IMG/VR virus record: IMGVR_UViG_3300044729_003978
DNA: 64,000 nt
Source of the DNA: an uncultured virus (IMG/VR IMGVR_UViG_3300044729_003978)
Taxonomy: Duplodnaviria > Heunggongvirae > Uroviricota > Caudoviricetes
Reading direction: 5' to 3' (one strand)
The notes under the pieces were generated by a model. It saw only the letters and a list, made by a program, of their open reading frames with translations. It was not told where the DNA came from and did no database searches. Shown here one piece after another: positions 1 to 59,238 of this stretch (position 1 is the first letter of the stretch; every line of letters starts with the position of its first letter). The position numbers and the translations under genes are program-made.

Positions 1-945
1 TTCTCCGCCGCCCGCGGGTTATGCGGTTTCGAGCATTACTCGGCGCTTGGCTTGCGCACGCTCACCTGAGAATCGTCCAGACTTACCCCACTCAGGGAGC
101 GTAATTTCAGTGCAAGTCCCTTATCCAGCCACGATGCGTCGCTGCATCGGCTTAGGTTCAGGATTGTAGTGTCAGAATAGGCATTGCCGCCGTCAACGCA
201 TCACGCACGCAGACCTAGCCCTGCGGACTTTCGCCCGCACGCTAGGTTACGCTTGTGTCACGCTGATACGTGCGCCACATCCTTTGTCGTCAGTAGTAGC
301 CAAGCAGGTCGTTACCGCACGGCGTAGTTCCGTGCAGTCAATACTACTGAGTACCGCAGGCTCGCACCTGCGCTACTATGGCATCGCTATACCCTAGGCC
401 ACACCCCCCTGCGTGAGTTATTTGTTACTATCGGCACTCTCGTGCCCACCGTAAGGGTAGTTATCCTAGGAGCGGTTCCAACTCGCACCTATCTAGTCTT
501 GCACTATACGATCCGATTACCGACAGTCGATAACTATCTACTCGGATCGGGGCATCTGAGAGTCACCTCATACTAGCATGGGTGCTCGACGCAGCACTAT
601 GACACCGTGCGCATCATACGGGGGCAGGATTACCATTAGCGTTTCCAGGCCTTGCGGCCTAGTGGTTATCCGACTCATGCCGTAGCATGAGCACGCGACC
701 TTCCGTATCAGAATCCGCAGCGACTCCCGAGCACTTTCGGCGCTCGGTTCCCTACCCGACTCTCTAGTTTACGCTCCCCCGTAGGGGCCGCACCGCGCGA
801 CTCTTGAGGCAAGTTTACGGGTCATGCCCGCTCTCGCTCTAGTCTATCGCTCGGCCGAGTGGTCGAGTACGCTACGCATATGTTCTCACCGAGCCTACGG
901 CTCGGGTCACCCCTCCCCCCGTAGGGGGAGGGTAGACCCACTCCG
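1..945 (-). ncRNA. Candidate large structured non-coding RNA (3' part may extend beyond the window start)
   Basis: No credible ORF. More than 12 hairpins whose loops read as UACG (911-932, 776-787, 674-691) or GNRA (GCAA 647-660, GAGA 433-446, GAAA 222-239 and 727-747, GCGA 355-372, GUGA 560-569) on the - strand. G-U pairs form only on the - strand (e.g. 222-239). Longer-range pairings at 290-297/342-349, 213-219/241-247 and 510-516/542-548. Confidence 0.6.
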
Positions 946-955
946 TACGCTCGCC

Positions 956-1411
956 TCAGGCGAGCTTCTTGAGGGTGATCTTCGCCTCGTTCTTGCCGAA
1001 GGCTCCGAAGAGGGCGGTCGCGAGGTGCGACCCATTGATCGAATCAGAGTCGATCGTCTTCCCGTACTCGTGCCCTCGGAGGGACGGCACCTCGAGGAAC
1101 ATCTTGCCGATCCCGACCTTCGTCGCGAGGTACGAGGCCTTCTCAGCCTCGGCTCGCTCGAGAGCGGCGAGCGCGGCGAGGTCGCTCGGCCTCTCGATCG
1201 CGGTCCGCATCGCGCGGTCCGCGGCCGAGATCGCGTTCGATCCCGCGAGGACGAACTCGTGAGCCGATCGCAAGAAGGCAGTTCTCGACTTGGGGTTCGC
1301 CGAAAGATCGGACGCCTCGAACTTCGCGACCTCCTCGCTCTTCGAGAGACGAACCAAGCGAAGGGAGACGGAGACGGAGGTGGTCGGGGAGGTGGCGGTG
1401 GTCTTCGACAT
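956..1411 (-). CDS. Hypothetical protein (151 aa, MSKTTATSPTT...), GC-rich, probably an early gene
   Basis: ATG at 1411 is preceded by a GAGGA SD. Strong G/C third-position bias and ordinary protein composition, unlike the Arg/Pro/Ser-rich overlapping frames. Confidence 0.7.
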   Translation of the reverse strand: MSKTTATSPTTSVSVSLRLVRLSKSEEVAKFEASDLSANPKSRTAFLRSAHEFVLAGSNAISAADRAMRTAIERPSDLAALAALERAEAEKASYLATKVGIGKMFLEVPSLRGHEYGKTIDSDSINGSHLATALFGAFGKNEAKITLKKLA

Positions 1412-1561
1412 GGAGATATCCTCGGGCGTGTTGCCCGTTTGGCGTTTCGTTGGCCGACTGCCCGCACGCTGCGGGCGGCATTGTCGGCACAACGGCAACA
1501 AAGTTGGCCGGTCTTCCCCGCCGGCTCGGCGGTTCTCACGTTTTCACAAGCAAAAACCAAT

Positions 1562-1631
1562 TATAAGCACTTTATTTAAAATAAAAAGCGCCAACCTAAA
1601 ATGGGGCGCGTTTGGTAACCATATAAGCACT
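1562..1631. repeat. Direct repeat TATAAGCACT (1562-1571, 1622-1631) flanking an inverted repeat GCGCC/GGCGC at the GC/AT boundary
   Basis: Read directly from the sequence; the two copies are exactly 60 bp apart. Confidence 0.6.
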
Positions 1632-1644
1632 ATTAAAACACTTA

Positions 1645-3039
1645 TCAGATATCTGATAAATCAACAGGCGTTTTATCAATCTTTTTTATATCACCCTTAT
1701 AAAATACAAGGACGTTTTGATGTATTTTTGTAATCTTTTTTGTTTTCATGCTATTTGCAGCCCTAACAGCGGCGGTGCCTATTGAATTTTTAAGTATAAT
1801 TTCATTGTATAATTTCAACTTGGAATCTAAAAGTATTCTAATAGTATCATAAACAAATCCATAATATGCACCCTCATCATTTCTCAAATCACCAACAACT
1901 ATAACAAAAAATGAATTATTTTTTAACAATAAACAGGCATCTTTTAATATTTTTGAGTAATTTTCTATAAATTCAGCGTATGTACCCATAGCGCTTAAAT
2001 CTTTTTTTGAATAAATCTCAAGGTTGTAATACGGCGGACAGGTAAGACACATATCAAAATATTCACCTTTGAGCAAACTAGATAAATTTACAGAATCACC
2101 CTCAACATAAGAAACCTTGTCTGAAACCCCCAAATTGCGCATAACCAGCTCATTAGCATTTATCTGATCTCCACGTATCTCCACACCCCTGTAATTTCTA
2201 TCTAGAAGCCCACAAACCGCGCCTCTAACTTGACTTCCTGCAAAAGGATCTAAAACACTATCTTTTTTCTTCGAAAACCACCTAACTAATACTTCACACA
2301 AAACAGGATCAAATACGCTTGTTCCAGAATTTATATGGGACAAGAATTTAACTTCATCTTCTTCAACAGAAGTTCTGCCAAATTCACCGTCTCTAGTTTC
2401 GGTGGCAGAACCAATTGTATTGAACCATTCCCTCTTTCTGCAAATCCAATCAGCGGAAGAGGAGTCTAGTATGCTAAATGGGGGAAAAACAAATTTATCT
2501 TTTAGGCCACCAGTAGAAATTTTCTTCAGTTTTCCGTAAGCCTGATTGATGCTTATTTTTCCACTTCTTAGATCTTTTTTTAAATCTTCATTGCCGTTTT
2601 TATCTATGTAAAAAGCTTTATGAAGCGTATCATGCGAATATCCTGTTTTTTCGGCTATTATTAAAAGAGTATTGTGTTTTTTTCCTTCAGAAGACGGCTT
2701 TTTAGAAAAGCCTAGCCTGTTTAAATCATCCTTAAGCTTTGCGTATATTTCTATTTTTTCGTAGGGCTGCAGATTTCTTCGTATGATTTGGTTTTCAATT
2801 ATAAAAGATAAAACCTCAAATCTGTCTTTAAAACTATAAAAAACATATTTCGGCTCTATTTTTAACTCTTCGCATATTTCGTATCTATTGTGACCGTCAA
2901 CTAAAACATTTTCTTCGGTCCAAACGATTAATGGTTCCCTAAGCCCATACGTTTTTATATTTTGCTTAAGAGCCTCTTTTTGTTCTTTTTGAAGGGGTGT
3001 AATTAAATTTTTAAATTCTTCAAGAATCTTTGGTTTCAT
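1645..3039 (-). CDS. ParB-like N-terminal domain fused to an amino (N6-A/N4-C) DNA methyltransferase
   Basis: ParB motif LREPLIVW...VDGHNRY, then an HTH-like segment, then SAM-binding VLDPFAG and catalytic TCPPY. Confidence 0.85.
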   Translation of the reverse strand: MKPKILEEFKNLITPLQKEQKEALKQNIKTYGLREPLIVWTEENVLVDGHNRYEICEELKIEPKYVFYSFKDRFEVLSFIIENQIIRRNLQPYEKIEIYAKLKDDLNRLGFSKKPSSEGKKHNTLLIIAEKTGYSHDTLHKAFYIDKNGNEDLKKDLRSGKISINQAYGKLKKISTGGLKDKFVFPPFSILDSSSADWICRKREWFNTIGSATETRDGEFGRTSVEEDEVKFLSHINSGTSVFDPVLCEVLVRWFSKKKDSVLDPFAGSQVRGAVCGLLDRNYRGVEIRGDQINANELVMRNLGVSDKVSYVEGDSVNLSSLLKGEYFDMCLTCPPYYNLEIYSKKDLSAMGTYAEFIENYSKILKDACLLLKNNSFFVIVVGDLRNDEGAYYGFVYDTIRILLDSKLKLYNEIILKNSIGTAAVRAANSMKTKKITKIHQNVLVFYKGDIKKIDKTPVDLSDI

Positions 3040-3388
3040 TTTTTTTAAAAACCCTATTCTTATTCTGCTCTGAAGCTGTTGCGTATCTTAAATTCTCTAT
3101 TCTATTATCATCTCTCACTCTATTTATATGGTCAACCGTTTTGTCTATAGGCCTAGGACCTATAAACGCTTCAGCAACAAGCCTATGAACAAACTGCTTA
3201 TAATTTTTCCCATTTAACGCAAGCACGACATAGCAATAACCGTCATCATCTCTGTGGATCTTGACAAAACCACCGCGCTTGCTGTAATATCTCCCACGAT
3301 TGAAAACCATCCTGGTCTTCTGACGAATAACTCCAGAATCACTGACTTCATATGAAGGGTTTGAGGGAAGATCACGCCAAATTACCAT
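3020..3388 (-). CDS. NUMOD4-HNH homing endonuclease
   Basis: WRDLP..YEVSDSG (NUMOD4) and VHRLVAEAF...VDHINRVRDDNRIENLRY (HNH_3). The start is more likely ATG 3388 than GTG 3403. Confidence 0.9.
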   Translation of the reverse strand: MVIWRDLPSNPSYEVSDSGVIRQKTRMVFNRGRYYSKRGGFVKIHRDDDGYCYVVLALNGKNYKQFVHRLVAEAFIGPRPIDKTVDHINRVRDDNRIENLRYATASEQNKNRVFKKNETKDS

Positions 3389-3393
3389 CCATC

Positions 3394-3403
3394 GTGTATA
3401 CAC
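3394..3403. promoter_or_regulatory. Palindromic GTGTATACAC, candidate bidirectional late promoter
   Basis: GTGTAT on both strands between divergent starts 3388 (-) and 3419 (+). Confidence 0.65.
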
Positions 3404-6226: not shown

Positions 6227-7276
6227 ATGGCTATCTTAAAAACATATATCCCAACTATACATGATATTCATACTTACGCCTATCCTGCTACTTTAAATCC
6301 AAGACTTGATGCAAGCCCTTTTGGTTTAAACCTAGACTGCCACGCCGCCCATATTCTGTGGAACGGTGTAAGCATACGCCCTAGAGCGTTCTGCAGAACG
6401 ATAGGAGCTGCGTTTCAAACTAGTTGGACTGCTCCGTACGAAGCAGAGAACATAAACTTTTGGAATACGTGCAATCCCACAGCCGTTTTGATATCACCCA
6501 AGCATGCTTTAATATGCCAGCACTACAGAGGCACTCATAACAGACCTGAGGAGTATTACACATTTTTAGGAAGGTCTGGTGCGTTCTACACGGGCAGAGT
6601 TTTAAAGGCCTACCTAAATATAGGGCCAGACCATACTCTAATTGAGTTCCAAGAACCATTTATTACTGACGTTCCGTATTACTCAAAAATTGCCGACGTA
6701 AAATACATTCCAACAGGCACGCCTCTTTGGATTCATGAATGCAATGGTAAAGCCTACAAGATGATTTTTGGTCAAGCTCAACTTAGCACTGCTGGATCTG
6801 CAGTTCAGTACACGTATGGCCCTAGTCTTGATCCGATCAACATTGGTATTACTGCAAATGGGTGGCCGGCTATATTTGGAGGAGATAGTGGGTCACCAAC
6901 CTTTATTGACTACAACGGCACTACTATTTTTGTAGGCTTAATGCACGGCGGCATGCAGGTAAACGATGTAGAGCTAGCTGCTATAAACGTATTATTGCAG
7001 CCTCAGGGTTATTCTGTAGAGCATTTTAAAGTTTCTGCAAAGCCTGCCGATTTGAATCAGGACGGATTAGTTGATGGCTCTGATCTTGCTAAGATCATTA
7101 GCGCTTGGGGTAATGGGTCTGCCCTTGCTGATTTAAATAAAGATGGAGTTGTGGACTCCGCTGACCTATCCGAGTTGCTTGGGTCATGGGGGGCGTACGC
7201 CATGCAGACAAATTTTTTCAAGCCTCCGACTACGGTTCAGCCTGACGACAATGCAAATATCAAACCTAGATCGTAA
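6227..7276 (+). CDS. Trypsin-like serine protease with C-terminal dockerin-like (EF-hand) repeats
   Basis: AVLISPKHALICQH (His), PDHTLI (Asp), GGDSGSP (Ser); two repeats ADLNxDGxVDxxDL...xxWG. Confidence 0.85.
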   Translation: MAILKTYIPTIHDIHTYAYPATLNPRLDASPFGLNLDCHAAHILWNGVSIRPRAFCRTIGAAFQTSWTAPYEAENINFWNTCNPTAVLISPKHALICQHYRGTHNRPEEYYTFLGRSGAFYTGRVLKAYLNIGPDHTLIEFQEPFITDVPYYSKIADVKYIPTGTPLWIHECNGKAYKMIFGQAQLSTAGSAVQYTYGPSLDPINIGITANGWPAIFGGDSGSPTFIDYNGTTIFVGLMHGGMQVNDVELAAINVLLQPQGYSVEHFKVSAKPADLNQDGLVDGSDLAKIISAWGNGSALADLNKDGVVDSADLSELLGSWGAYAMQTNFFKPPTTVQPDDNANIKPRS

Positions 7277-8716: not shown

Positions 8717-9540
8717 ATCAAAAATTGTCTTCAGCAGATATAAATTTTATAACAGAAAACATAGACAAAATTAGCATGGCGGAAATCAGTAGAAGATTAA
8801 ATTGTTCAGTAAAAACGATAGAAAGATATAAGAAAAAATTATCTGATATATCAAGCAAACCTGACCAGCCAACAGTTGAAGACAATATCGAAAAAGACTC
8901 AAATTTTTGGATAAGGGATTTAAACGCTTCAGCAAGAGGTAGGAGAATAAAAGCTATGCTTACAAAAAATGAGTGGGAATCTTTTTGCGAAGATTGGGCT
9001 GGGTATCATACTCAGTTAGACGATCTAAACCATACAGAGGAAAATAATATAGAGCAGATAATAATGTTAAAGCTTAGAATAGATAAAAATCAGCAGGATT
9101 ACTCTAAAAATCTAGAATTAAGAGATACTCTAATGAGAGAAAGTGGTGTAAGAGATATAAAAGATTTAGATTTAACAAACCCAAACGAAGCTCAAGTTTA
9201 CGAAAAAGTATTTGCTGCCGGGCTTAGACTTTCTGATTTAAACAAAGAGTACAAGGAACTTTTAGAGAAAAGCACAAAAATAAGCGAAAGCTTGAATATA
9301 ACAAGAAGACAAAGAGAAGAAAAAGGTAAAGTAGGAGCAGACACGCTTTTTTCGCTATTTAAAAAATTCGACTCTAAAAAGACAAGAAGTCAAGAAGGAA
9401 GAATGGCTGAGCTTATGAAGATGTCAATGCACAAAAAAACTGAAGAATTGAGAAACGCGGTAGAGTTTATGGACGGAGAAATAGCTCCGCAGCTTTTAGA
9501 TATACAAACAGTGAATGGATCAGGTGAAAACAATGAATAA
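8713..9540 (+). CDS. Probable terminase small subunit (N-terminal HTH plus coiled coil)
   Basis: SMAEISRRLNCSVKTIERY HTH; helical oligomerisation-like region; lies upstream of TerL. Confidence 0.5.
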   Translation: MNQKLSSADINFITENIDKISMAEISRRLNCSVKTIERYKKKLSDISSKPDQPTVEDNIEKDSNFWIRDLNASARGRRIKAMLTKNEWESFCEDWAGYHTQLDDLNHTEENNIEQIIMLKLRIDKNQQDYSKNLELRDTLMRESGVRDIKDLDLTNPNEAQVYEKVFAAGLRLSDLNKEYKELLEKSTKISESLNITRRQREEKGKVGADTLFSLFKKFDSKKTRSQEGRMAELMKMSMHKKTEELRNAVEFMDGEIAPQLLDIQTVNGSGENNE

Positions 9541-10516
9541 AAAAGCAATAATCACAGGGTGCCACGGACAAGACGGATCTTATCTGTCAGAGTTTTTATT
9601 GGAAAAGGGTTATGATGTATACGGAATATCTAGAAGAACCTCTTCAAGAGATAACAACTATCTAGACAACTGTCTAAAAAATGAAAGATTTTATCTAGTA
9701 AATCTAGATATAACAGACGCTTCTGGCGTTAGCAATATTGTGGCAAAAATAAGACCAGACGAATATTATAATCTAGCCGCTATGTCTCATGTTGGTCAAA
9801 GCTTCAAGGAGCCTCTAAACACTCTTAAAATAGACGGCGAAGCTGTTACCATAGCCTTAGAAGCGATAAGAAACAACAGTCCAGAGACAAGATTTTATCA
9901 GGCTTCAACATCAGAGCTTTTTGGAAATTCCATAGCTCCTCAATCAGAAAAAACAGAATTTGCACCAAGAAGCCCATACGCTGCTGCTAAGCTATACGCT
10001 CATAAAATGGTTGGCCTTTACAGAGAGGCCTATAAAATGCACGCGTCTTGCGGTATACTTTTTAATCATGAAAGTCCTAGAAGGGGTCTAGATTTTGTTA
10101 CTAGAAAAATAACTAGAGGTGTTGCTAAATTCATATTTACTAAAGAGAAATTTTCAATAGGCAATCTAGACGCAAAAAGAGACTGGGGTCACGCAAAAGA
10201 GTACGTCGAGGTAATGTGGAAAATGCTTCAAAAAGATACACCAGAAGATTATGTAATAGGTACAGGCGAAACCGCCTCTATTAGAGATGCTATTGAATAC
10301 GTTTGTTGGTTGGCTAATGTTAAAGAAAAGCCATACTATCAAGACGAGTCAATGATTAGACCAGCAGAGGTTTTTGAGCTTACGGCTAATCCAGAAAAGG
10401 CGGAATTTGGATTAGGCTGGAGAGCGCAAAATAATTGGAAAAAAGTTTTAGAAGACATGTTTGCTAGTGATTATAAGGAAATTAAAGAGCTTTACGATTC
10501 TAATTGTAGTGTATAA
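9533..10516 (+). CDS. gmd: GDP-mannose 4,6-dehydratase
   Basis: AIITGCHGQDGSYL, YNLAAMSHV, FYQASTSELFG, PRSPYAAAK, GILFNHESPRRG..FVTRKIT, GNLDAKRDWGHA. Confidence 0.95.
   Translation: MNKKAIITGCHGQDGSYLSEFLLEKGYDVYGISRRTSSRDNNYLDNCLKNERFYLVNLDITDASGVSNIVAKIRPDEYYNLAAMSHVGQSFKEPLNTLKIDGEAVTIALEAIRNNSPETRFYQASTSELFGNSIAPQSEKTEFAPRSPYAAAKLYAHKMVGLYREAYKMHASCGILFNHESPRRGLDFVTRKITRGVAKFIFTKEKFSIGNLDAKRDWGHAKEYVEVMWKMLQKDTPEDYVIGTGETASIRDAIEYVCWLANVKEKPYYQDESMIRPAEVFELTANPEKAEFGLGWRAQNNWKKVLEDMFASDYKEIKELYDSNCSV
10509..10514 (+). promoter_or_regulatory. GTGTAT candidate late promoter
   Basis: 13 nt before GTG 10522. Confidence 0.55.
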
Positions 10517-10905: not shown

Positions 10906-11377
10906 CTCAAGAGAAAAAAAGCCATGGGAATTTTCAGAAGGGCTTCCTAGCGGTTTCTTTGTAAAAGAAACTAAAACTATTGGATTGCCATGCGGAGACT
11001 ATTCGCTAGAGGGGTTCGATAATAAAGATGGAATCATAATAGAAAGAAAAAATAGTATTGAGGAGATAATAGGTAATTTTGGTAAAAACTGGGAAAGATT
11101 CCAAAAAGAACTAGATAAACTAGCTGAATATAAGAGATCATACATTCTTGTAGAAGACGACCTTAGAGACTCTTTCGCTAGATACGGTGCTAGAAATCCA
11201 AAAAAAGGAATGTACTTTACTTTATCTCCAGATTTTATAATAAAAAGAGCATGCGAAATAGATTATAAATGGGGCGTTAAAACTCTTTTTCTTTCAAATA
11301 AATATTTTGCAAAAAAGTACATGTGCAATATATTCAAAGCTCTTTTAGAAAGCAACCTTGACAAAAAACTGGACTAA
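10823..11377 (+). CDS. ERCC4/XPF-family nuclease domain protein (start uncertain)
   Basis: IIIDSREKKPW, LPCGDYSL, IIIERK, ILVE. Confidence 0.85.
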   Translation: MHRKTYAQGRKKAEKTLKETIYANIIIDSREKKPWEFSEGLPSGFFVKETKTIGLPCGDYSLEGFDNKDGIIIERKNSIEEIIGNFGKNWERFQKELDKLAEYKRSYILVEDDLRDSFARYGARNPKKGMYFTLSPDFIIKRACEIDYKWGVKTLFLSNKYFAKKYMCNIFKALLESNLDKKLD

Positions 11378-13376
11378 AGAACATATTCAGGAATATCTAA
11401 ATAACGCTTATTTAGAGATAGGCGATACTTATAATTTAGAAATAGAAAATCCTATAGACCTATCAGTAGGAAAGGACTTGGTTCCAGAACAGCTTGTAAG
11501 AATTTTTAAAGACATAGACTATCTGCCATTTACGGTAAAGACTCTTCTAAATATGAATCTTTTTCCGTATCAAATGTCTATACTAAATACTCTTTGGACT
11601 AAAAGACTACCTATGATATTAGCCACAAGAGGCGGCTCAAAAACCACAATGCTTGGTTGTTATGCTATAACAAAAGCTCTTCTAGATCAAGGTAGCAAGA
11701 TAGTTATAGCAGGTGCTGGTTTAAGACAGTCTGGTTTAGTATTTGAGTCCATGGAAAATATATGGAAAAACGCACCTATTCTACAAGATATATGTGGAGT
11801 GAATAATGGACCAAGACGTGGCGTTCTTGGGTTCACTTGGGAAATTGGTGATAGCAAAATAATGGGCATACCAATTGGAACAGGAGAAAAAATTAGAGGA
11901 CTCAGGGCAAACGTAATCATAGTTGACGAGTTTGGTTCTGTAAATCCAGATATATTTGAGACTGTTATTAGAGGATTTGCTTCTGTTCAAAGCAACAACA
12001 CTTTCGAAAAAGTAAAACATTATTATCAAATAGATGCGCTTAAAACAATAGGAATGTCCGATGAAGACATAAACGATTTTGTTGGCACTGCTAACAATGA
12101 AGGAAACCAAATAATAATAGCTGGAACAGCTACTTACCAGTTTAATCATTTTTATAAGTATTATCAAGATTATTGTAACATGATATATGATAATGCAAAA
12201 AATAATAATGAAAATTGCGAATACGCTGTTATTAGATTGCCTTGGGATAAGCTACCGAACGGTCTTATGGACAAAACAATATTAGAACAAGGCAAGGCAA
12301 CTATGGACTCCTCAATTTTTAAAATGGAGTATGGGTGCGTTTTTGCAAAAGACTCAGACGGTTTTTATCCAGCATCGGCAATACATAGGGCTACTTGTCC
12401 AATCAGAACAAAAGACGGAGAAATAAACTTTTTTGCTGAAGATTCTGGAGAAAATAACTCTAGATACGTTATGGGAATAGATCCCGCGTCTGAAAGAGAC
12501 AACTTTGCAATATCTATAGTGAAAATTTCAGATGAATCAAGTAGACAACTAGTATTTTGTTGGAGTACCAATAGAAAAAAGTTTGAACAAAGCAGAAAGA
12601 AAAAACCGCAGAACTTTGTGGGAATAGACGACTACAACACGTTTATATTAAGAAAGATACATGAACTTTGCGGAAGATTTAATATATCAAGAATAAATAT
12701 AGACTCTGGTGGAGGCGGAAGATCCGTAATAGAGGGTCTTAAAGATCAATCTAAACTAAAAGACGGAGAGTTTTGCATTTTTGACATGGACGATGATGAG
12801 GTGTCAGATAGAAAAGGCTCTCACATAATCAAGGTCATAGAATTCTCTTCTAGAGAATGGTACGAGGCTGCGCATTACAACTTACTAAAAGATATAACTA
12901 CAATGTCCATACTCTTCCCAGCCTATGATGCGATAACAGTTGAACAAACTAGAATGACGAATTCAGAAGAAGAAATAGGCGATTTTTCAATAGAAAATAT
13001 TCAGTATGAAATAGAGGAATGCAAATACCAAACGACACTAGTTCAAGAACAAACAACGGCTAAAGGAAATAAAACTTGGGACTTGCCAAAAATTAAAGGT
13101 GTTATAACAGAAGGCATAAAGAATAGACTCAGAAAAGACCATTTTACAAGCCTGCTTTTGGCTAATGATGCTGCTAGATCTTTAAATGTAAGAGAGCCTG
13201 ACGCAAGAACTACGTTTGGTGGTTACTCTTTAAAAGAGGCTGCGGCAAACAAAATGTTTGGAGGAAACATGTATCAAGGAAGAGGGCTTAAAAAGATGAA
13301 AAACATAAGCTCTAATATAAATAGACCTTCGAGTAGAAGTAGACCAGACGGATCAAACGGTAGTATAGCTTATTAA
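11358..13376 (+). CDS. terL: Terminase large subunit
   Basis: LFPYQ, Walker A ATRGGSKT, IRGLRANVIIVDE (Walker B), FKMEYGCVF, nuclease MGIDPA and KDHFTSLLLA. Confidence 0.92.
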   Translation: MTKNWTKEHIQEYLNNAYLEIGDTYNLEIENPIDLSVGKDLVPEQLVRIFKDIDYLPFTVKTLLNMNLFPYQMSILNTLWTKRLPMILATRGGSKTTMLGCYAITKALLDQGSKIVIAGAGLRQSGLVFESMENIWKNAPILQDICGVNNGPRRGVLGFTWEIGDSKIMGIPIGTGEKIRGLRANVIIVDEFGSVNPDIFETVIRGFASVQSNNTFEKVKHYYQIDALKTIGMSDEDINDFVGTANNEGNQIIIAGTATYQFNHFYKYYQDYCNMIYDNAKNNNENCEYAVIRLPWDKLPNGLMDKTILEQGKATMDSSIFKMEYGCVFAKDSDGFYPASAIHRATCPIRTKDGEINFFAEDSGENNSRYVMGIDPASERDNFAISIVKISDESSRQLVFCWSTNRKKFEQSRKKKPQNFVGIDDYNTFILRKIHELCGRFNISRINIDSGGGGRSVIEGLKDQSKLKDGEFCIFDMDDDEVSDRKGSHIIKVIEFSSREWYEAAHYNLLKDITTMSILFPAYDAITVEQTRMTNSEEEIGDFSIENIQYEIEECKYQTTLVQEQTTAKGNKTWDLPKIKGVITEGIKNRLRKDHFTSLLLANDAARSLNVREPDARTTFGGYSLKEAAANKMFGGNMYQGRGLKKMKNISSNINRPSSRSRPDGSNGSIAY

Positions 13377-27211: not shown

Positions 27212-30200
27212 TTGGAAAATTTTCTGCTGAATTTTGCAGCCCAAATAGATGTAGGAAGAATTGTAATAAGCCCAGGCGTAAAAAATACGCTTGCGGCTTT
27301 AGGCAAAATAGGCGGCGGAACAACAACTAGCAAGGTAAAACAAACAGTAGAGCTTGATGTAAAGACTATTGGAAGGGTTAGTGATCTCGGTTCAGATCTA
27401 GCAGCGCAAATAAGAAAATCTTTAGATAAGATAAAGATAACCCCGACTAAGATACTAGACGAGGCTTCTCTTTCAAAAGTAAACTCTAGACTAGAACAGA
27501 TTCCTGTTATAATAAAATCCATAAATGCGGCAATAGCTGGGATCAAGGCTGTTCCTTCTATCGTCCCAGAGCCAGAAAGAGAGCTAGGCAGATTATCTAC
27601 ATTAAGAAAATCCCTTAAATCTATAGAGGCTGAGGCAAACAAAGCTCTTAAGTTACAATTCTCTCTAGAGCTAGGCGAAATAAGAGGCTTTGATTCAAGC
27701 ATAGCAAATGCTAGAAGCAACGTAAAAAATCTTCAGGATCAGTTAGATAAGCTAAAGGCCGCCCCGTCAAAAAGCCTAGACATTCAGAAACAAACTGAAA
27801 CAGCAAATGCCGCATTTCTAAAAATGCGGGATTTAAGACAGCAAAGAGCGGCTCAAAAAAATCTTTCTCCAGATGAGAAGCTAGCTCTTCAGGCACAAGA
27901 AAAGGAAGCTAGAGACGCGTTGGCAAAGATAGAGGCTAGAAGAGCTTCTAGTAAAAACGTAACTCAACAGATAGCTGAAGCGGAGGCAAAAAGATCTAAA
28001 GGGGCCACGGCTCAGTTTAATTTAGGATCTAGTTTAAAGGCCGAACAAGAGCGAGCTAAACAGGAAATAGAAAAAGCTAGAGCGCGTTTAGAAGCCGAGC
28101 AGCTAGGCCTTTCTATAATCCAAGAGCAATCAGCGGCTAGGTCTTTAACACCAGAGCAGACTAAAAAAATACAGGCTAAAGAAGCGGCAATATCTTCAGT
28201 GGAAGCAAAGAAGACTGAGATATCGAAGGCTTTTGATCAAATAAATAAAGAAATAGCCGACTTACTAGATAAGGAGCGTAAATCAGCTCAAAAGGTTATA
28301 GACGACTATAACAAGAAAAGGGCAGAAGTTTTACAACAATTTAAGGGTAAAAGAAAAGATCTACCAGCTAGAACCAAAGCGCTAGAAGCCCTGGAAGCAC
28401 AATTCCCAAACCTGTTAGAAGCCCAAAGCGCTATAGGTTTTTCTGGTTTTCAACCAAAGACCAAAAAATTTCAAGAACTTAAAAAGAAGCAAGAAGCCGC
28501 AGCTCAAGCGTTTACCGAGTCAAATCAAGGGGTTGAGGCCGCAAAGAAAGAACTTGAAGAGACTAGGGCTAGTGTCCTAGAGCAGAACAAGAAAAAGGCT
28601 GTCACAAAAGACGTCTTAGATCAGCAAAATAAAGTTAACGAGGCCGCAAAAAAACTTGCGGATATTGAAAAAGCTTCACAAGAAAAAGTTAATAAGCTCA
28701 GACAAGATTACGAAGCACTAGGAATATCGGTTGCTAAAGCCGCCGAGAAAAAATCGCAATTAGAAAAACTCAAGTCAGAAGGAAAGACCGGCCTTGAAGG
28801 AATAGATGCACAGATTGAAAAAGCAAAAAAATCACTAAATGAAATTCAGCAAAAACTTGTTGTTTCTGGAGAAAGCCCGAAACTTACAAGAGCATTCCAA
28901 GATGCGAGAAAAGAGTTTGCTTCAGCTTTAGCAAACAGAAAACAGGCACTTGACACTCAAAAATCTGTTGAGCAAGAAATACTAAATTTAGAAAATCAAA
29001 TAAACGCTCAAAAAACAATTCAGATAGATTTAGAAAAACAACAGGCTGCTGCGATATCCGCAAAATCTGGAAATCTAAAGCAGGATATAGCGCTAAGAGA
29101 AAAAATAGAAGATATAATAAATAGGGCTATTATAGCCGAGAAAAATTTACAAAAACAAGTATCTGATTCTTACGCTAGAGTTGGAAAAAACGCACCACAA
29201 AAAACGGAGACAGAACTTAGAACCTCCGCTTTAGCTAGACTAGGTGTTTCAGAACCAGAAATAAATCAACCTACCGAAGAAACACTAAAAAGAATAAAAA
29301 CCGCCAGACCTTCAGCCGCTGCAAGTAGGGCTGATGAGCGCGTTTCTAAAATTGAAACCTTAGATTCTCAAGAAAGGCTTAGAGTTCTTAATGAGAGAAT
29401 AAGGACATTGGCAATAAAAAGGGTTGAGACGGAAAGAATTAGCATAAAGCCGAGTCTGGATTATCCAACGCCTAGAGAAACCATTGATAGGGCATATACT
29501 AAAACACCCGCCGTCACCCCACTAGGCACAGTAGAGGAGTCTATAAGAGAAAGAGTTTTTGCAGAATTAAAGCCATCTGATCAAGCGTCAGAAGTGAGCG
29601 CGATTAGACAAGTAAACACTTTAATTAAAGAGCAAGTTGAGCTTAAAAAAGAAGCTTTAAGACTTGCGTCGCAAGAAGGCGAAGCTAGAAGGAAAGCCTT
29701 AGAAATAGAGGCTAAGCTCGAAAAGTTAACCAATATTGAAACTAGAAATAGAGGCAAGATAGCAACAGCTCTTGCGGCTCAAGGTTTTAATTTTGATCCT
29801 TATACAGGAGTAGCGACTAAAGCTGTTCCGCCAGGACAAACGGCGCCTAGACCATTAAATATTTACCCACAATCAACACCTAGAGAGGCAGTGCTATCAA
29901 AAATCGGTATTAACGAGAGTGAAGTTGATTATGCTACGACTGCAGAACTTAATTTTCAAGGCGCTACTAGAGTAGCGAAGAGTATAGCTAACGCAGAGGC
30001 TAGACTAGCTAGAGCGGGGCGACAAGAATTAGAAAACGCAAAACTAGTATCGAATAGATCTGTAGCCGCAGGAGATCTTAGAAGAAATTTAGTAGATTTA
30101 ATTCAAAGAGATCTAGATTTATCGAGAAGAAGAGTTGCGCTTTCTGGTGGCGAAGCACCAACTTTAGCACAATCTGCGAATAGAGTTATTAGTCGCACAT

Positions 30201-33200
30201 TTGGCACTGGTCCTTCAGCACCTAGAACAGTAGGTGGCGCAGTTGACGTTTTTACTTATGATGAAGAAGCAGGAGCGGTTGAAGCGTTAAAAAGAGTGTC
30301 GGATGCTAGAAGAGAACAAGTACAGGCAATAAGACAAGTTAGAGCAGAAGAAAGAGCCGCTGCAGAGGCAACTAGAAATGCAGCTAGAGCTGCTCAACAG
30401 GCAGCTAGAAATGCCGCTAGAGAGGAAAGAACAGAAACAGACAGAAGAGCCAGGGCTATAGAAAGAATAAACGCTCTCATAGAAAGATCAGCGCTTTTAT
30501 ACGAGCGTCAAGCAAGAGCATCAAACGCGCTGTCTAGGTCTGGGGTGCCAGGTATTCCAACTCAGCGAATCGATCAAGCAGCTTTAACAGCTAATGCTTC
30601 TAGATTAATAACTGGCGGCGCCGATCTAACAGGCCTGTCTTCAACTGAATTAGGTAATTTAGAGAGATCTGGAAGAGGTAGATTGCGTGCACAACAGGCT
30701 GAACTAAGAGAGTTTAATTCAGCTGTCAAGGAGGTTAGTGCTGGAACTAGATCTGCGTTCGAGTTAATTTCAAAGTATTCAGACAACGCTTTTGATAGAT
30801 TTGGCGCTAGAGTTGGTCTTGCCAGTGAAAGGTTGGCAGCTTATGTAATAAGCGGTGCCGGCTTATACTCAGCGATAGCAGCAACTAGACAGGCTATAGT
30901 AGAAACCGCACTGTTAGAGAAAGAAATTACGAGTGTTCAGCAGATTTTCGACACTTTAGGTACTAGTGGCGGAGAGAATGTGGGTTTGGCTGCAACATTT
31001 GATGCTGCATCAAAAAGAGCATCTGATCTAAAAGAACAAGTTTTAGCGATATCTCAGGTTACTGGAGCCAAGCCTGTAGAAATAGCGCAGTCGGCCAAAA
31101 CACTTGCTGCGGCAGGATTTGCTGATCCTCGAAAATCTGGCTTTGCAGAAACAATATCTGCAGTTTCTTTTGCAACACTAGGACCAAGCTTTGGTAATAG
31201 TCAAGAAGTTATAGACGGTCTTATCGCTTCTATAAATCAGTTTAATAGAAGTCTATCAGAAACACCTTATATTTTGGGGTTGGTAAATCAATTCTCAAAA
31301 GATTATGCTGTTGAAGCTCAAGATCTCTTCGAATCTATAAAGAGAGGCGGTGGTGCTTTTAGCGCTGTTGGCGGAAATTTAGAAGATTTTATAAAACTAA
31401 CAACTATAATTAGAGAAACTACAAGAGAAGCTGCGCCAGTAATAGGCACGTTTATTAAAACACTCTCATCTAGACTTTACTCAACCGCTGCAGAAAATCT
31501 TTTTGGACAGCTAGGAATAGACACGAAACAGATAACAGATCCTTACGAAAGACTTCTTGAGCTATCCAGAAAGCTGAAAGGCTTAGGCGAACAAAACGTT
31601 CTACCACTTTTATCAAAGATAGTTGATAGTCGTCAGGCTGGTCGTTTTGCCTCCTTGGTTAAGGTATTAGGAGAGTTTGACACAAGGTTTGGAACATCTG
31701 AAGAGATAAGAGCCAAAGCCGTGAATTCTATCGCTGAAGATGCCAAGAAAAGATTAGACGATATAGGCCCAACCATAGATAGAATAAGAAACAGTTATTT
31801 TAAATTTGTAGAAAATATATACAACAATCCAGCAACTAAAGCTCTTCTAGATATACCAGCCGGCCTCTTAGGCGCTCTTTCAGAGGTTCCAAAGCTAGGA
31901 TTTTCCGTTGGTAAGGCAGATTTTAACGCTGCAAATTTTATAAATCCTCTAGCGCAAGGTGGCGCAGCAATAGGTATAGCAAGCGTAATAAGAGGTTCTA
32001 TAAGAGCTTTCCAACAAAACGGTCTTAGCGTTAGACAAAATACTGCATCACTAGATCAGCTTAGAGGATCTGTTAACGCATTAACACTTCAAATGGGCGG
32101 TAGAGCTGTAGCCCCAGTTGGTGGCCAGCCTGGGCGAGGAGGCGGTATATTTGCTGGATTCAGAGGCGGTGGAGCGGGAGCCGCTATAGCTCTAGCTGGA
32201 GCCACTCTAATACCAGGTTTAGTTAACTCCATTCTTCCAGCTCTAGAATTAGAGGCTGATACTTCTAGTAATATAGCAGCTGGTGTTCAGGGGGGAACTC
32301 TAGCTGGAGTTGTGGCGAGATCGCTAGGCGCAGGATTAAGAGGAACGGCTATAACTGCAATTGTAGGCACAGCGGTTTCCGCAGCTTCTTCTGAATTTGA
32401 GAATAGAAGACAAAGGCAATTATTAGAAGAACAAAAAAGACAAGCGGAGGCAGCAAAAAGTACGAGTGAGCTATTTGATATAGGTAAAACTGGTCAGATT
32501 AAAAAAACCGATGTTATAGCGCCTACAAAAGAAGCTAGAGCTTTTATAGATGGCGTAGTTAAGTCAGATAGATTTGATAAATTTAAAAATTTAATACCTA
32601 GTCTATTACTAGACCCTGGTTTAGAACGAAATAGGGTCGAGATAGCTAAAACTGAAGACTTGGCAACAAAAGCCGCAAAAAATCTTAATTTAGACCCAGA
32701 TGCATTAAGAAATGGTCTTGAAGATCTTTCACAAAATCTCAGAACCTCTCTAGAAACAGCTCTTACTAAACGTTTAAAAGATGTGCCAGATACACTAGAG
32801 GGTAGAAAACTAGCTATAAAAGACGTTGCAAAACAATTTTCTGAAAAAATAACAATACAAGGTAAACAAATAGATTCTGAAGTCATAGAAAAATCTCTAA
32901 GTGACCAATTTTTAAGAGTTAACAGCCAAACACGAGAATTGTCTCAATCTTTTGGAGATTTCAGAGTGGCTGTGAAATCTCTATACGAAGAGTCTGAAAT
33001 AGCTGGAAGAATTTTAAATACTCTAGGATCTACTATAAGTAGGACTGTAGAAATACAAAATACAGGAATACAAAGAGTTTTAGATTCAGCAAACAGATCT
33101 TTGGCGTCTCCAGAGTTTACAAAAAGACTTACAACAAATCCTTTTGCATTTCAAACAACTCAACAGCTTCAACAAAGCGCTTCTATAAGAACTGTTTCAA

Positions 33201-46119: not shown

Positions 46120-46652
46120 GTGAAGCGTTTCTCCAAAAGCATTATATCTAGTTCGTCGGTCGAGGTTTTAGACTCATTTAAAAATGGGAAAAATGAAAGG
46201 AAAATTGTTCTTATATGCTCATTTACAAAAACAATCTCATCAAAAAAATCGCAAATAGCTGGAAGAGATTTTGATATCTCTTTCATTCCAGTTATGTCTG
46301 AAATATACCAAACCTTTTTATTTAAAATGCATCCAGACTGCATTAGATTTATAGCAGATCTTATTGTCAACGCTAAAGCATCACCTCTATAGTGCTCTAT
46401 ATAATTGTAATAATATAAAGCGCAAGGATTCACAAGAGCTGGTGAATTATTATCAGATGTAAATATCATATAATCGTAATCATATGTATTCTTCTTGTAT
46501 AGAGCGCTTACTATTTCGTAGTACTCTTGACTCCTAACCGAATCCATGCATATAGCAATTGATTTTCTATTTGGGAATCTAGTTCCTAATAAAAACGTTT
46601 CTTTTATCGGATCCTGGTTATATTTTCCACTCATTTTTTTTGATCCTTCCAT
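46116..46652 (-). CDS. Hypothetical protein, possibly a degenerate glycosyltransferase N-domain (start may be 46634)
   Basis: KKVWYISD...DEIVFVNEH; lies in the glycosyltransferase cluster. Confidence 0.5.
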   Translation of the reverse strand: MEGSKKMSGKYNQDPIKETFLLGTRFPNRKSIAICMDSVRSQEYYEIVSALYKKNTYDYDYMIFTSDNNSPALVNPCALYYYNYIEHYRGDALALTIRSAINLMQSGCILNKKVWYISDITGMKEISKSLPAICDFFDEIVFVNEHIRTIFLSFFPFLNESKTSTDELDIMLLEKRFT

Positions 46653-47334
46653 ATATAGTTTCCCATTCTGGATTTATCTTTTCTACATTCGTTGAATTAG
46701 TTTTACTTGCTTTGTGGTTATTGTATGTAAATAATGGAATTGGAACTCTTAGTGCAAAATAGCCAGATAGGATTATTCTGCACCAAAGATCGTAATCTTC
46801 TATATATCTAAAAGATTCATCAAAGCCTCCAACTCTTTCAATAGCACTTCTTCTAACCATCGAATTGGTTGATACAATACATTCTTTGAATAGAAGCTCT
46901 CTATCAAAATTCATCTTTAATCTTAGTTGCGCTCTGTCTGGATAACGTTCTATATAGTCGCTATAAACAATACCAACGCTATCACCTTTTCGCATAAACT
47001 TTAAAGATTCTTCAAGTTTTCTTGGATCATAAAAATCATCTCCATCTAAGAAAGATATGAATGGTGCAGAAGATTTGCTTACACCAAGATTTCTAGCAGA
47101 AGCCGTTCCGCCATTATTTTTCTTTGTATACTTTATTTCAAAGTCTGTTTTTGACTGAAGATTAGAAATAATGTCCTGAGTTGAATCTACGCCACCGTCG
47201 TCTATAACTATCAGTTCATACATGTTTTTTGGCAGAGTTTGGTTCAAAACACTTTTGATAGCTTTTTCTATAAAATTCTCTTCATTATATGTAGTTATTA
47301 CTACAGACACTTCAGGATTTGACATTGCATTCAA
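46618..47334 (-). CDS. Glycosyltransferase family 2
   Basis: VSVVITTYN, IVIDDG, GTASARNLG, FLDGDD, GGFDESF..EDYDLW. Confidence 0.93.
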   Translation of the reverse strand: MNAMSNPEVSVVITTYNEENFIEKAIKSVLNQTLPKNMYELIVIDDGGVDSTQDIISNLQSKTDFEIKYTKKNNGGTASARNLGVSKSSAPFISFLDGDDFYDPRKLEESLKFMRKGDSVGIVYSDYIERYPDRAQLRLKMNFDRELLFKECIVSTNSMVRRSAIERVGGFDESFRYIEDYDLWCRIILSGYFALRVPIPLFTYNNHKASKTNSTNVEKINPEWETIYGRIKKNEWKI

Positions 47335-47719
47335 CCTTTATTATAGAACATCCGTCCTCTAGATAAACCTTAGAAACATCTAGACCTGCAGACAAAATAA
47401 AATTATGGGCGGCTTGAACATTAAATGCGTTTTTTATCGACTTACAGGTAGCGTGACCTATACCTAGATCTATTTTATGATTTGCAACATTTACAAAAAC
47501 TTGATAAATATTTATAAAACCAATTGTTATTTTCGAGTCTTTTTTACAGTGCATGTTAATTTTTGCAAGCAACGCCTCTGGCGCCTCAGAAGTTTCAAAA
47601 GTTCCAGGATATATATAGAGTTCATCTATTGCGGTATCGACTGTTTCTAAAAATTCCTGCTCGGTTAATTTTGTAAAGTTTAAATGTTCTGATTCTTTAT
47701 TTGATATAAAATATTTCAT
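47312..47719 (-). CDS. Hypothetical protein, possibly a degenerate methyltransferase-fold fragment
   Basis: 135-aa coupled ORF; weak IDELY...LL..I...CK..SKI pattern. Confidence 0.45.
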   Translation of the reverse strand: MKYFISNKESEHLNFTKLTEQEFLETVDTAIDELYIYPGTFETSEAPEALLAKINMHCKKDSKITIGFINIYQVFVNVANHKIDLGIGHATCKSIKNAFNVQAAHNFILSAGLDVSKVYLEDGCSIIKVECNVKS

Positions 47720-48716
47720 TTACAGTTCCTAGTCTTTGATTATAGGCCTTATTAAATATTGAGTTCCAATTATGAACAAAAGTTTCCATAGAATAGTTGG
47801 ATTCAATAAACCTTCTAGCGTTTGAGCCAATGCTTTCAAATCCTTCCTCATTATTGCAAATTTTAACAACCGCTTCAGCCAAAACATCTAAGTCATTCGA
47901 TGAAACAGAGTTTTCTTCATTTAATATCTTAGCAACCTCTTGATATCTAGTCGAAACTATAGGCGCCCCGCAAGACATAGCCTCAAGAAGAGACATTGGA
48001 ACAGGAGAAAATTTTGAGGTGTTTATATAGCACGCAGAATTTTTAATTTTTTCTGCAATTTTATTTGGATCTGATATAGGCCTGCTTATTCCGGGATTAT
48101 CTCCAATAAGAGTAAATTTGATTTTTGGGTCTATAGACGTTGCTTTGTTTTTAACATATTCCCATTCAAAATGACCACAAAAGAAATCTCTATCTCTTAG
48201 ATAGTTTACGGTGTACACAACCTCTTTGCTACCGTTTGGTTTCCATCCAGAAAAGACATTAGTATCTATTCCGTGATTTATGACTATAGCGTCTTTGTTT
48301 TTCCAGCTTTCTTTGTTGTGTTCTGTTATACAGACATTTAAATCTGCTTTTATATTAATCGTCTCTAGCAAGGCTGGATTATTAATAGGCTCAACATGAT
48401 CTATATGTATCAAAGGAAGTCTAAGAGCATTGGCTAGGTTTTTTGAGTTTTGTATTTGAGAATATCTCTCTTGTGAGATTATAAAATCTATCGAGGATGG
48501 TATTTTTTCAAAATCGGTAACTATAACGCAGTTCTTAGGAAGCTTTCTAAACTCTTCATTCCATTTCTTAGATCCTGGCATCTCAAGCAAGAAGAAGTTA
48601 TGGCCAGTTCTAGCCATCGCCTCTTGATAAGCTTCGTGTGTAGAGAATGTTAATATATCGTATTTCTCTTTAGATTTTCTATTTATTTTATTTGAAACAA
48701 ACAATACTGGATTCAT
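47697..48716 (-). CDS. Glycosyltransferase family 4 (GT-B)
   Basis: VINHGIDT..F, YINTS..SPVPMSLLEAMSCGAPIVS. Confidence 0.9.
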   Translation of the reverse strand: MNPVLFVSNKINRKSKEKYDILTFSTHEAYQEAMARTGHNFFLLEMPGSKKWNEEFRKLPKNCVIVTDFEKIPSSIDFIISQERYSQIQNSKNLANALRLPLIHIDHVEPINNPALLETINIKADLNVCITEHNKESWKNKDAIVINHGIDTNVFSGWKPNGSKEVVYTVNYLRDRDFFCGHFEWEYVKNKATSIDPKIKFTLIGDNPGISRPISDPNKIAEKIKNSACYINTSKFSPVPMSLLEAMSCGAPIVSTRYQEVAKILNEENSVSSNDLDVLAEAVVKICNNEEGFESIGSNARRFIESNYSMETFVHNWNSIFNKAYNQRLGTVNEIFYIK

Positions 48717-49810
48717 ATCAAGGCCTCCATTTTTTTAGCACAAGCTTCTATGCTAAAATTGTCCTCTAGAAATTTTCTATTTTCTTCAACTATGTTTTTA
48801 ACTAATTCAGGATTGTCTAAAACAAACCTCATTTTTTCACATAGTTCGGTTGTAGATGGGTCTAGCCAGTTTTCTTGCCAATTGTAGTAAGGATCCGAAT
48901 TCATTCCAAAAACCTTTTTAGGAGTGAATGAAGATATTAAAATGTCTTGGTATAAAAAGTTTTTCTTTATTCCAGATATTTTGGGAGCTATCACTGGCTT
49001 ACCTCGCATGGCAGCAGAGCAAAGCGGTAAGCCTTCCCCTTCACCTCTAGACATAGACACAAAACAATCACAAGTATCTTCTAGACTACAAAGATCGTCA
49101 TCAGAAAGCATTTCAGTTATCAAAACTATTTTGGGATAAAGTTGCTCGCGCTTACCTATTTGCTTTTTAAGCTCAGATACTACGTTTTTTATGTAAGCGG
49201 ATGATTCTGATTTACTTTTACCGCTGACATAGCTCTTTATAACTAAAGAAACATTATCGTGAACAGAAAATTCTGTAAGGAACCCATGTATAAGTGCGTT
49301 TACATTCTTTTTATTTGAGTAATCAGATACTGTATAAAATTTATATGTATTTTTAACTTCTTTTCCAAGATCAAACAAAGAGTTGCTTGTTTTTGGTTTT
49401 TCCTTTGGTTGGTCTACTATTTTTATTTTTAATTTATCAACACCTGAATTGACACAAGCTAAAAACTGTTCTTCAGTTGTGACCCAAATCTCGTCCATCA
49501 ACTCGCATCCAGATTTCCATCCAGAAGAATTAAAACTATCAGTTTCCCAGAAGAAATAGCCTATGTTTTTTACTCCAGATATTCTAACAAACATATCTGG
49601 TAAACATTGTTGTATTACGATATCACAATCGTCTAAATTATTATTCTCCAATTTAGAAACAAAATCACTATTTTTAAATGGAGTCTTATTTAAAGTTACC
49701 CAGATTGGAACAACATCATGTCCAGCCTTACTTATCGACTCTATCATAGATAATGCGGCATTGCCATAACCAGTGCCGTCTTTATATACGGATATATAGG
49801 CTATTTTCAT
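48713..49810 (-). CDS. Glycosyltransferase family 4 (GT-B)
   Basis: TGYG, GYFFWET, DEIWV, KKN, DCFVSMSRGEGEGLP. Confidence 0.9.
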   Translation of the reverse strand: MKIAYISVYKDGTGYGNAALSMIESISKAGHDVVPIWVTLNKTPFKNSDFVSKLENNNLDDCDIVIQQCLPDMFVRISGVKNIGYFFWETDSFNSSGWKSGCELMDEIWVTTEEQFLACVNSGVDKLKIKIVDQPKEKPKTSNSLFDLGKEVKNTYKFYTVSDYSNKKNVNALIHGFLTEFSVHDNVSLVIKSYVSGKSKSESSAYIKNVVSELKKQIGKREQLYPKIVLITEMLSDDDLCSLEDTCDCFVSMSRGEGEGLPLCSAAMRGKPVIAPKISGIKKNFLYQDILISSFTPKKVFGMNSDPYYNWQENWLDPSTTELCEKMRFVLDNPELVKNIVEENRKFLEDNFSIEACAKKMEALI

Positions 49811-53606: not shown

Positions 53607-54257
53607 TTAATTTGCTTGGGTTTCTTTTTGAGCGTTTATTTTTGGTCTTATTTTAAAGTTCATGAAGTTCATATATCTTTGGAACATCTTTTTTGTTATG
53701 TCTACATCCTCAGCAGCGTCGTGATTTGCGGTTGCTCTCTTAAGTCCTATTATCTCTGCATACGTGTCCATCTTGTTGTTTTTCAAACCGTCTCTTCCAA
53801 ATATGCAAAACATCAATGGAAACATGTCTATTTGCATGTTAGACCAGGGTAAATCATCTTTTTCTGATATTATCTTGTATTCAAGCATCTGGTGCTTAAG
53901 GAATGGTATGTCAAAGTTTACTATGTTGAAGCCAACAAGAACTGGGGATGTCCAAAACTTCTTTGTATGATTAACAGAGTCTAAAAACTCTTTGAACTTT
54001 CTTATGCCAACCTTTGGATGAAGTCCATCAGATTTAGCCCTACTCCATAAATCTTCGCCAATCACCTTTATAGCGTCTGGACTAGCCCTTTCGGGCTTTT
54101 GAGGCTTTATAAGCAAATCAAACCTACCATTTTCTATTTCAGAGTAGTCTGAATATTTTAAAGCAACCGCTGATATCTGAACAATCTCAGCGCCGTCTTT
54201 AGGATCTAACCCGCTAGTTTCTAAGTCAAAAACAACGAAATTCTTATTGTTGGCCAT
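53607..54257 (-). CDS. DEDDh 3'-5' exonuclease (DnaQ/epsilon-like)
   Basis: VFDLETSG, VGFNI.NFDIPFL, HDAAED. Confidence 0.92.
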   Translation of the reverse strand: MANNKNFVVFDLETSGLDPKDGAEIVQISAVALKYSDYSEIENGRFDLLIKPQKPERASPDAIKVIGEDLWSRAKSDGLHPKVGIRKFKEFLDSVNHTKKFWTSPVLVGFNIVNFDIPFLKHQMLEYKIISEKDDLPWSNMQIDMFPLMFCIFGRDGLKNNKMDTYAEIIGLKRATANHDAAEDVDITKKMFQRYMNFMNFKIRPKINAQKETQAN

Positions 54258-59045: not shown

Positions 59046-59238
59046 CACTATTTTTATACACAAAATTATAATTATAGGATTTGGTCATAAAAAATCTGTG
59101 TTTAAAAGCGCTTAAAATTTCTATTGCCAACATCACATCATTTATATTAGCTATAGCTATAGTTTGACCATTTTGTTGCATTAATATCCTATCGCTATCT
59201 TCTTTTATCGATATTGAAGCGCTAGATATAGGTTTCAA
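59032..59238 (-). CDS. Small hypothetical protein
   Basis: 68-aa ORF coupled to the dnaE-N stop, GGAG SD. Confidence 0.5.
   Translation of the reverse strand: MKPISSASISIKEDSDRILMQQNGQTIAIANINDVMLAIEILSAFKHRFFMTKSYNYNFVYKNSDGPL
59056..59061 (-). promoter_or_regulatory. GTGTAT candidate late promoter
   Basis: 16 nt before ATG 59045. Confidence 0.6.

Follow-up and report, generated by a model that had tools for sequence, protein, structure and literature searches.

A non-coding RNA gene of about 1 kb lies on the minus strand of a tailed phage from lake water, and it represents a family of large ornate phage RNA that is new and unusually placed. That the gene is genuine can be said with confidence just short of certainty. 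The window, meaning the whole stretch of 64,000 nucleotides that was analyzed, had been predicted from its letters alone to begin with a large, novel, minus-strand phage RNA. Covariation, strand asymmetry, RNA contigs, and zero Rfam matches now bear this out.

The window is that of a tailed phage, with a terminase large subunit (11358-13376) and a tape measure protein of 2579 aa, and it also encodes DnaE in two pieces, a primase, and glycosyltransferases. Eighteen lake-water DNA runs are listed as containing its sequence, 11 of them flagged as its possible source. The two parts of the DNA polymerase III alpha subunit (52088-53605 and 59235-61103) lie about 5.6 kb from each other, the exonuclease subunit being encoded separately at 53607-54257, and a GDP-mannose dehydratase and glycosyltransferase cluster occupies 9515-10516 and 46618-51525. 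A protein with a C-terminal dockerin repeat (6227-7276) is similar to one bacterial cluster in which Planctomycetota is the commonest phylum, and this may be taken as a lead only to a Planctomycetota host. The RNA and its surroundings consist of the following features, given by position in the window.

1..953, minus strand: large structured non-coding RNA, type A, its 3′ end missing at the window edge (homologs L049, L072, and L074)
1..14, minus strand: 5′ arm of the terminal hairpin, which is followed in homologs by a short U run
69..92, minus strand: motif AGUGGGGUAAG(U)C..GGACGAUUCU, which forms the loop of a covarying stem and is the chief sequence common to types A and B
469..497, minus strand: 29-nt block identical in all four type A RNAs, where the conserved 3′ half begins
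573..576, minus strand: self-complementary CUAG in a hairpin loop, unchanged in all four type A RNAs
674..691, minus strand: hairpin in which an RNA contig carries two compensatory pairs and a loop changed from UACG to UUCG
760..860, minus strand: variable 5′ segment, closer to L001 than to the other type A RNAs (a mosaic)
890..953, minus strand: 5′ G/C-rich hairpin with a cUACGg loop, immediately past the stop codon, common to L001, L049, L072, and L074
956..1411, minus strand: P0001, a protein of 151 aa, Ala-rich, basic, mostly helical, of no known family
1412..1540, minus strand: structured GC-rich leader with a Shine-Dalgarno-like GAGGA at its end (1401-1600 folds with z -2.9 on minus and -3.2 on plus)
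1535..1632, minus strand: conserved motif at the AT-to-GC boundary, consisting of AAGTGCTTATA (two copies in the window) and then TTG...TGTG, aligned at 10 of 10 loci

The folding of the region favors the minus strand. The minimum free energy (MFE) of 1-950 is -432.4 kcal/mol on minus (z -7.59) and -366.4 on plus (z -3.98), each against 20 shuffles. GNRA and UNCG loops on stems of at least 4 bp number eight on minus, compared to a shuffle mean of 1.04 and with none of 500 shuffles reaching eight, and there are none on the plus strand. All nine hairpins named in the original prediction fold on the minus strand where they had been placed, with some corrections of detail. The GUGA hairpin at 560-569 is present, its stem being only 3 bp (-1.4 kcal/mol); the GAAA loop at 727-747 is closed by C-G in the full fold and becomes a 5-nt loop when the hairpin is folded alone; and the enclosing stem 290-297/342-349 exists in a register off by one base. 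One result counts against the observation: in the most conserved part, 1-200, the local 200-nt fold on minus equals shuffles (z -0.2).

The composition of the region is as distinct as its fold, with a GC content of 58% in the first kilobase and 29-44% in the 1-kb bins from 2 kb onward. The view that 1-945 holds no plausible open reading frame (ORF) has also stood up. The ORFs entirely within it are all of 55 aa or less, and two long overlapping frames run into it from the neighboring GC-rich gene. Among homologs, indel lengths are divisible by 3 in just 14 of 71 cases in type A and 9 of 40 in type B, so the RNA region is not coding.

Loci of relatives were collected by a terminase search (44 loci). 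The RNA itself has three close homologs, called type A, and six distant ones, called type B, of which four are distinct, all in related tailed phages. When the RNA was used in blastn, 1 of 23 virus records matched (G002), and a 17-nt conserved motif had three matches (G002, L072, and L074); type A consists of the window and these three, at 62-92% identity. The G002 homolog folds with a z of -12.0. At the equivalent position the complete genome G004 has a different structured sequence of about 1.1 kb with the motif GUGGGGUAAG..GGACGAUUCU. A scan with the loop motif yielded 11 viral matches, comprising the three of type A, the six of type B (L075, L076, L078, L079, L080, and L085), and two, L081 and L082, that were rejected as chance matches within coding DNA; the single genome match, L086, was dropped on the same ground. 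The RNA is 953-1109 nt long in 10 sequences.

Types A and B have in common only the 23-nt loop, the 3′ flank, and their position. No similarity between them is detected by nhmmer, and a covariance model of the type A 3′ part had no match in 14 sources, type B loci among them. In the 3′ flank, the score is 54 for L072 with L080 (null maximum 36) and 35 for L074 with L080 (null maximum 30), and neither comparison with L075 exceeds the null. On the strength of position, the loop on its covarying stem, and the 3′ flank, the two types are likely homologous, which falls short of proof.

Other sequences can occupy the same site. For example, L001 has the same layout, with a protein 44% identical to that of the window and an RNA with z -4.6 over 572 nt, which has only the first hairpin and a segment of about 100 nt in common with the window; 760..860 against L001 gives a local score of 54, where the maximum of 30 shuffles is 32. 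In L007 (1-972, minus), a phage whose terminase is 79% identical, the same upstream motif and a 191-aa gene accompany a structured sequence of about 970 nt (z -11.9) that has no Rfam match and no similarity that could be detected to either type. Both sequences, that of L001 and that of L007, run off the end of their contigs. In the distant records G010 and G011 (terminase 37%) the RNA had no match, the region is absent from the nearest record, G001, and a motif from the 5′ segment of the window and L001 had no matches.

The secondary structure is conserved and multi-branched. With four sequences per type and shuffles that ignore phylogeny, RNAalifold gave 272 pairs in type A, 70 with two-sided change, and RIBOSUM scoring gave 285 pairs with 63 clean double changes, compared to 12-19 in six column shuffles and 3-5 when partners were slid by 1-3 columns. 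In type B, RIBOSUM scoring gave 315 pairs and 66 clean double changes (6-14 in column shuffles and 1-5 with slid partners). One-sided changes and breaks number 36 and 54 on the sense strand of type A versus 14 and 76 on the other strand, and 22 and 27 versus 13 and 40 in type B. The G-U changes, together with the GNRA and UNCG loops, are why the strand is assigned as minus. For the 319 pairs of the window MFE, each homolog has 33-40 double changes and 50-84 broken pairs, so the set of helices has support as a whole, and the fold is still provisional in its details.

Some parts of the structure suggest roles of their own. The hairpin at 890..953 is a possible stabilizing or processing element. 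The CUAG loop at 573..576 is a candidate kissing loop, as a lead only, and the same holds for a self-complementary CUAG/CAUG loop pair in type B. A search for pseudoknot partners of the invariant loop found none conserved across the types. Beyond the window edge, homology predicts that the terminal hairpin ends some 25-30 nt farther on, and that a hairpin-rich flank of about 200 nt follows.

Contigs from sequencing runs give another view of the locus. Those of three of six RNA runs and 1 of 18 DNA runs were aligned to 1-3000, and stretches without coverage prove nothing. The RNA contigs are 151-219 nt long at a depth of 3-4, from runs picked for containing part of 1-1560. All five, from all three of the freshwater metatranscriptome runs placed, fall in 81-898, and none of the five is on the ORF or the methylase. 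Such contigs say nothing of strand, ends, or level and could stem from DNA carry-over, making them weak evidence of transcription. Their substitutions are independent support for structure and strand: scored on MFE or consensus pairing, 7 of 13 retain the predicted pair, 1 (at 127) breaks an MFE pair, and 5 are unpaired. One contig has compensatory changes at the pairs 674/691 and 675/690 in addition to its UACG-to-UUCG loop change, and the other pair-keeping changes are UG to CG (733), AU to GU (708), and GU to AU (796).

A DNA contig spans 1089-1751 and joins the GC-rich and AT-rich parts; this bridge and the recurrence of the layout in relatives rule out a chimeric assembly. Another DNA contig extends 60 nt beyond position 1, which shows that the window edge truncates the RNA. 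In one DNA run, contig depth is about 8 over 914-1751 and 2-4 on either side, which is not a copy number; the rise could come from a short terminal repeat or mixed strains.

One could consider the region a structure of the DNA itself, at a genome end or in an injection region, for which the first-step-transfer stop signal of T5 is the model. The sharp AT-to-GC boundary with its conserved motif would suit such a structure, several contigs stop in or shortly past the element (the window, L001, L007, L049, and L079), and the plus strand, too, folds beyond chance (z -4.0). However, the G-U-type changes and the GNRA and UNCG loops favor one strand, and the RNA contigs bear UACG-to-UUCG and UG-to-CG changes, leaving this reading extremely improbable.

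The RNA is part of a cassette with a fixed order, namely boundary motif, leader, 150-aa gene, RNA, terminal hairpins, and small GC-rich genes. The consensus of the boundary motif, AAGTSCT.AT..TT...TGTG, is present at 10 of 10 loci and is followed by a GC-rich leader and a gene of 147-191 aa. The motif is a putative early promoter and/or genome-end signal; a sigma-70 scan did not pick it up, and the sigma-70 and terminator scan was uninformative. In G004, GC leaps from 0.44 to 0.71 at the boundary and then declines over about 12 kb. The RNA sits at the GC peak, and the decay runs across about 12 kb of small genes, many of which lie downstream of the RNA on its strand. From composition and gene content, the cassette would be the start of an early, host-adapted region, comparable to the early regions of T5, T7, and SPO1.

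The neighborhood of the cassette has features of its own. A ParB-methylase fusion and a NUMOD4-HNH endonuclease adjoin it in the window (1645-3403), and relatives have an HNH gene or a methylase-type gene directly upstream of it. Farther along the putative early region, G004 (29575-31609) and G025 have two paralogous Ala-rich genes of about 140 aa that belong to another family. In the early region of G025 and G026 (L087-L089), AAAGTCCRC occurs seven and six times, on the sense strand only and often directly past a stop codon, and it is a possible processing or antitermination signal. The distant relative G010 has a GC-rich small-gene region (100300-102100) with G/C-run hairpins between genes and no large RNA detected.

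This arrangement raises the question of whether the RNA acts in cis, as the leader of an early operon, where the nascent RNA would modify RNA polymerase or organize processing. It is known that the put RNA of phage HK022 modifies RNA polymerase and that put-type elements, of about 70 nt, act only in cis. In the lake phage, such an effect would carry transcription past hairpins and through 10-15 kb of early genes. The RNA does come after the first gene and before all of the later small genes, with which it shares its strand, and terminator-like and repeated bulged hairpins come after it in both types. In G025, AAAGUCCRC is found seven times in the sense direction and not once on the other strand, with one copy inside the RNA and at least three directly past a stop codon. 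However, about 1 kb with many covarying domains far exceeds known put-type elements, and in G010 the GC-rich small-gene region comes with no such RNA detected. The RNA contigs, all of which fall on the RNA while the ORF upstream, in the same putative transcript, has none, are a weak further argument. A cis-acting leader appears unlikely, although it is the main rival of the trans-acting reading described below.

The gene before the RNA, taken in the original prediction to be a 151-aa ORF (956-1411), is real. Its third-position GC content is 0.88, compared to 0.24-0.32 for four other genes, and P0001 has 18 relatives in an alignment (A3). The protein has no Pfam or PHROG family match, and its fold has no match in PDB, BFVD, or the ESM Atlas, the best Z of 6.5 being a common helical arrangement. 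Scans based on it found no relatives in viral contigs or genome contigs and one in metagenome contigs. The A3 profile matched 0 of 23 virus records, a search that is insensitive since several of these records carry distant members.

Whether this protein is the partner of the RNA, as had been suggested, is less clear. A ribonucleoprotein of the OLE-OapA or HEARO-IsrB kind could explain why a gene of about 150-190 aa is adjacent at 10 of 10 loci compared, with a product that is net basic in all. The proteins at other loci form a second subfamily that matches that of P0001 by profile (probability 80%, E 1.4e-5), with an identical order of helices and strands in two models, and the two main subfamilies appear to be homologous; the L007 protein has no match to them. 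That much supports half of the suggestion. The gene evolves fast; protein and RNA, however, vary independently. For example, the RNAs of L072 and L074 are 92% identical and follow proteins whose alignment, at 40%, covers only 57 aa, and the 44% identical proteins of the window and L001 precede largely different RNAs. This reassortment weakens the case for a dedicated complex. With no RNA-binding fold matched either, a ribonucleoprotein seems quite unlikely.

We propose instead that the RNA may be an early, trans-acting scaffold or decoy resembling GOLLD and ROOL, a reading to which we give about an even chance. Host polymerase would transcribe the cassette from the boundary motif, and processing at the flanking hairpins would release the RNA from the early transcript. 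The RNA of about 1 kb would then fold with 5′ domains that vary and a conserved 3′ core that displays the invariant loop. Early in infection it would work in trans as a scaffold, possibly self-assembling as GOLLD and ROOL are, and would bind or decoy a host factor of the defense or translation machinery.

A bolder version, which we regard as doubtful, takes the first-expressed cassette as a hypervariable module that swaps or rebuilds kilobase RNA folds, so that the RNA and not a protein would be the early effector of anti-defense or host takeover. The swapped or rebuilt folds would comprise types A and B, the sequence in L001, the unrelated one in L007, and the mosaic 5′ segment of the window. 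The effector might then be, for example, an RNA-only cage or a decoy showing the invariant GUGGGGUAAG loop to a host target.

Comparison with known RNAs begins with Rfam, where the whole window has nothing at gathering score and 1-1700, searched up to E 10, has only sub-threshold, unrelated rows. A catalytic RNA or intron relic, such as a group I or II intron or an RNase P-like RNA, would agree with the size, the multi-branch structure, and the long invariant blocks. However, no Rfam match appears for the window or its homologs up to E 5-10, nor any core match to group I or II introns, RNase P, or tmRNA. No gene is interrupted, since the ORF ends before the RNA, and the adjacent ORF, having no Pfam or PHROG match, is no reverse transcriptase or maturase. 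A catalytic origin is accordingly very improbable. Nor does the RNA fit a sponge of the CsrB/RsmZ type, in which hairpin loops present numerous GGA motifs: just 0-2 of 17-20 GGA are unpaired in the MFE folds of five RNAs, and the CsrC rows in Rfam are confined to the terminal hairpin. Mimicry of, or antisense to, rRNA was rejected because, in nearly all of 60 comparisons, the number of 8-10-mers in common with E. coli 16S and 23S is close to that of shuffles. L072 with the 23S complement shows the greatest excess (7 versus 1.9 ± 1.6). The sequence GGUAAGUCGG of L072 and G002 has its complement in E. coli 23S, and the match is shorter in the window and type B.

The literature searched, mainly its open-access part, has no account of the lake-phage RNA, and the one match that blastn of 1-1560 found in 50,697 phage records is weak and lies within the ORF. 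Six supplementary files of PMC10690425 have no match to the motif or contigs; the 29-151-nt IMG/VR candidates of that paper could include fragments of the RNA. The lnc001 and lnc002 RNAs of Staphylococcus phage K are likewise long phage non-coding RNAs (0.6-1.2 kb), lnc001 with its own early promoter, but they adjoin tRNA genes in a Kayvirus (PMC9241854). OLE RNA with OapA and HEARO with IsrB also place a large RNA beside a constant protein gene (PMC12286853), whereas the neighbor here is small, soluble-looking, helical, without a family match, and reassorts relative to the RNA.

GOLLD and ROOL come closest. ROOL is a large ornate RNA of phages and prophages (PMC5737381), and besides rRNA, group II introns, and GOLLD, no RNA of such complexity exceeds its length, according to that source. 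It has three conserved pseudoknots and differs in length, about 581 nt compared to about 1 kb here. GOLLD is similar in size, with a conserved 3′ part and a variable 5′ part (PMC12286853); it forms an RNA-only homo-oligomeric cage and rises on phage lysis (PMC12286853, PMC5737381). The lake-phage RNA likewise is phage-borne (with terminase and tape measure in the window), derived from a lake, longer than 800 nt, and rich in covarying stems, with a conserved 3′ and a variable 5′ part. However, this RNA stands behind a fixed gene of about 150 aa and heads a GC-rich region. GOLLD, like ROOL, is often near tRNA genes. No tRNA or tmRNA is present in the window, whose side downstream of the RNA is missing, and no tRNA in G025 or G026; G004 and G005 have one tRNA-Arg about 2 kb downstream of the type B RNA. 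The GOLLD and ROOL models have no match up to E 5-10 in the window, L001, L049, L073, L075, L078, L079, L080, or L094. As far as can be told, then, the lake-phage RNA is like GOLLD and ROOL in size and plan, yet not a member of either. Bacterial and phage RNAs so large and complex are rare, and what they do is an open question. To them is now added a class of about 1 kb with covariation support and complete phage genomes, and its location at the head of a putative early region allows a direct test of giant ornate RNAs in host takeover.
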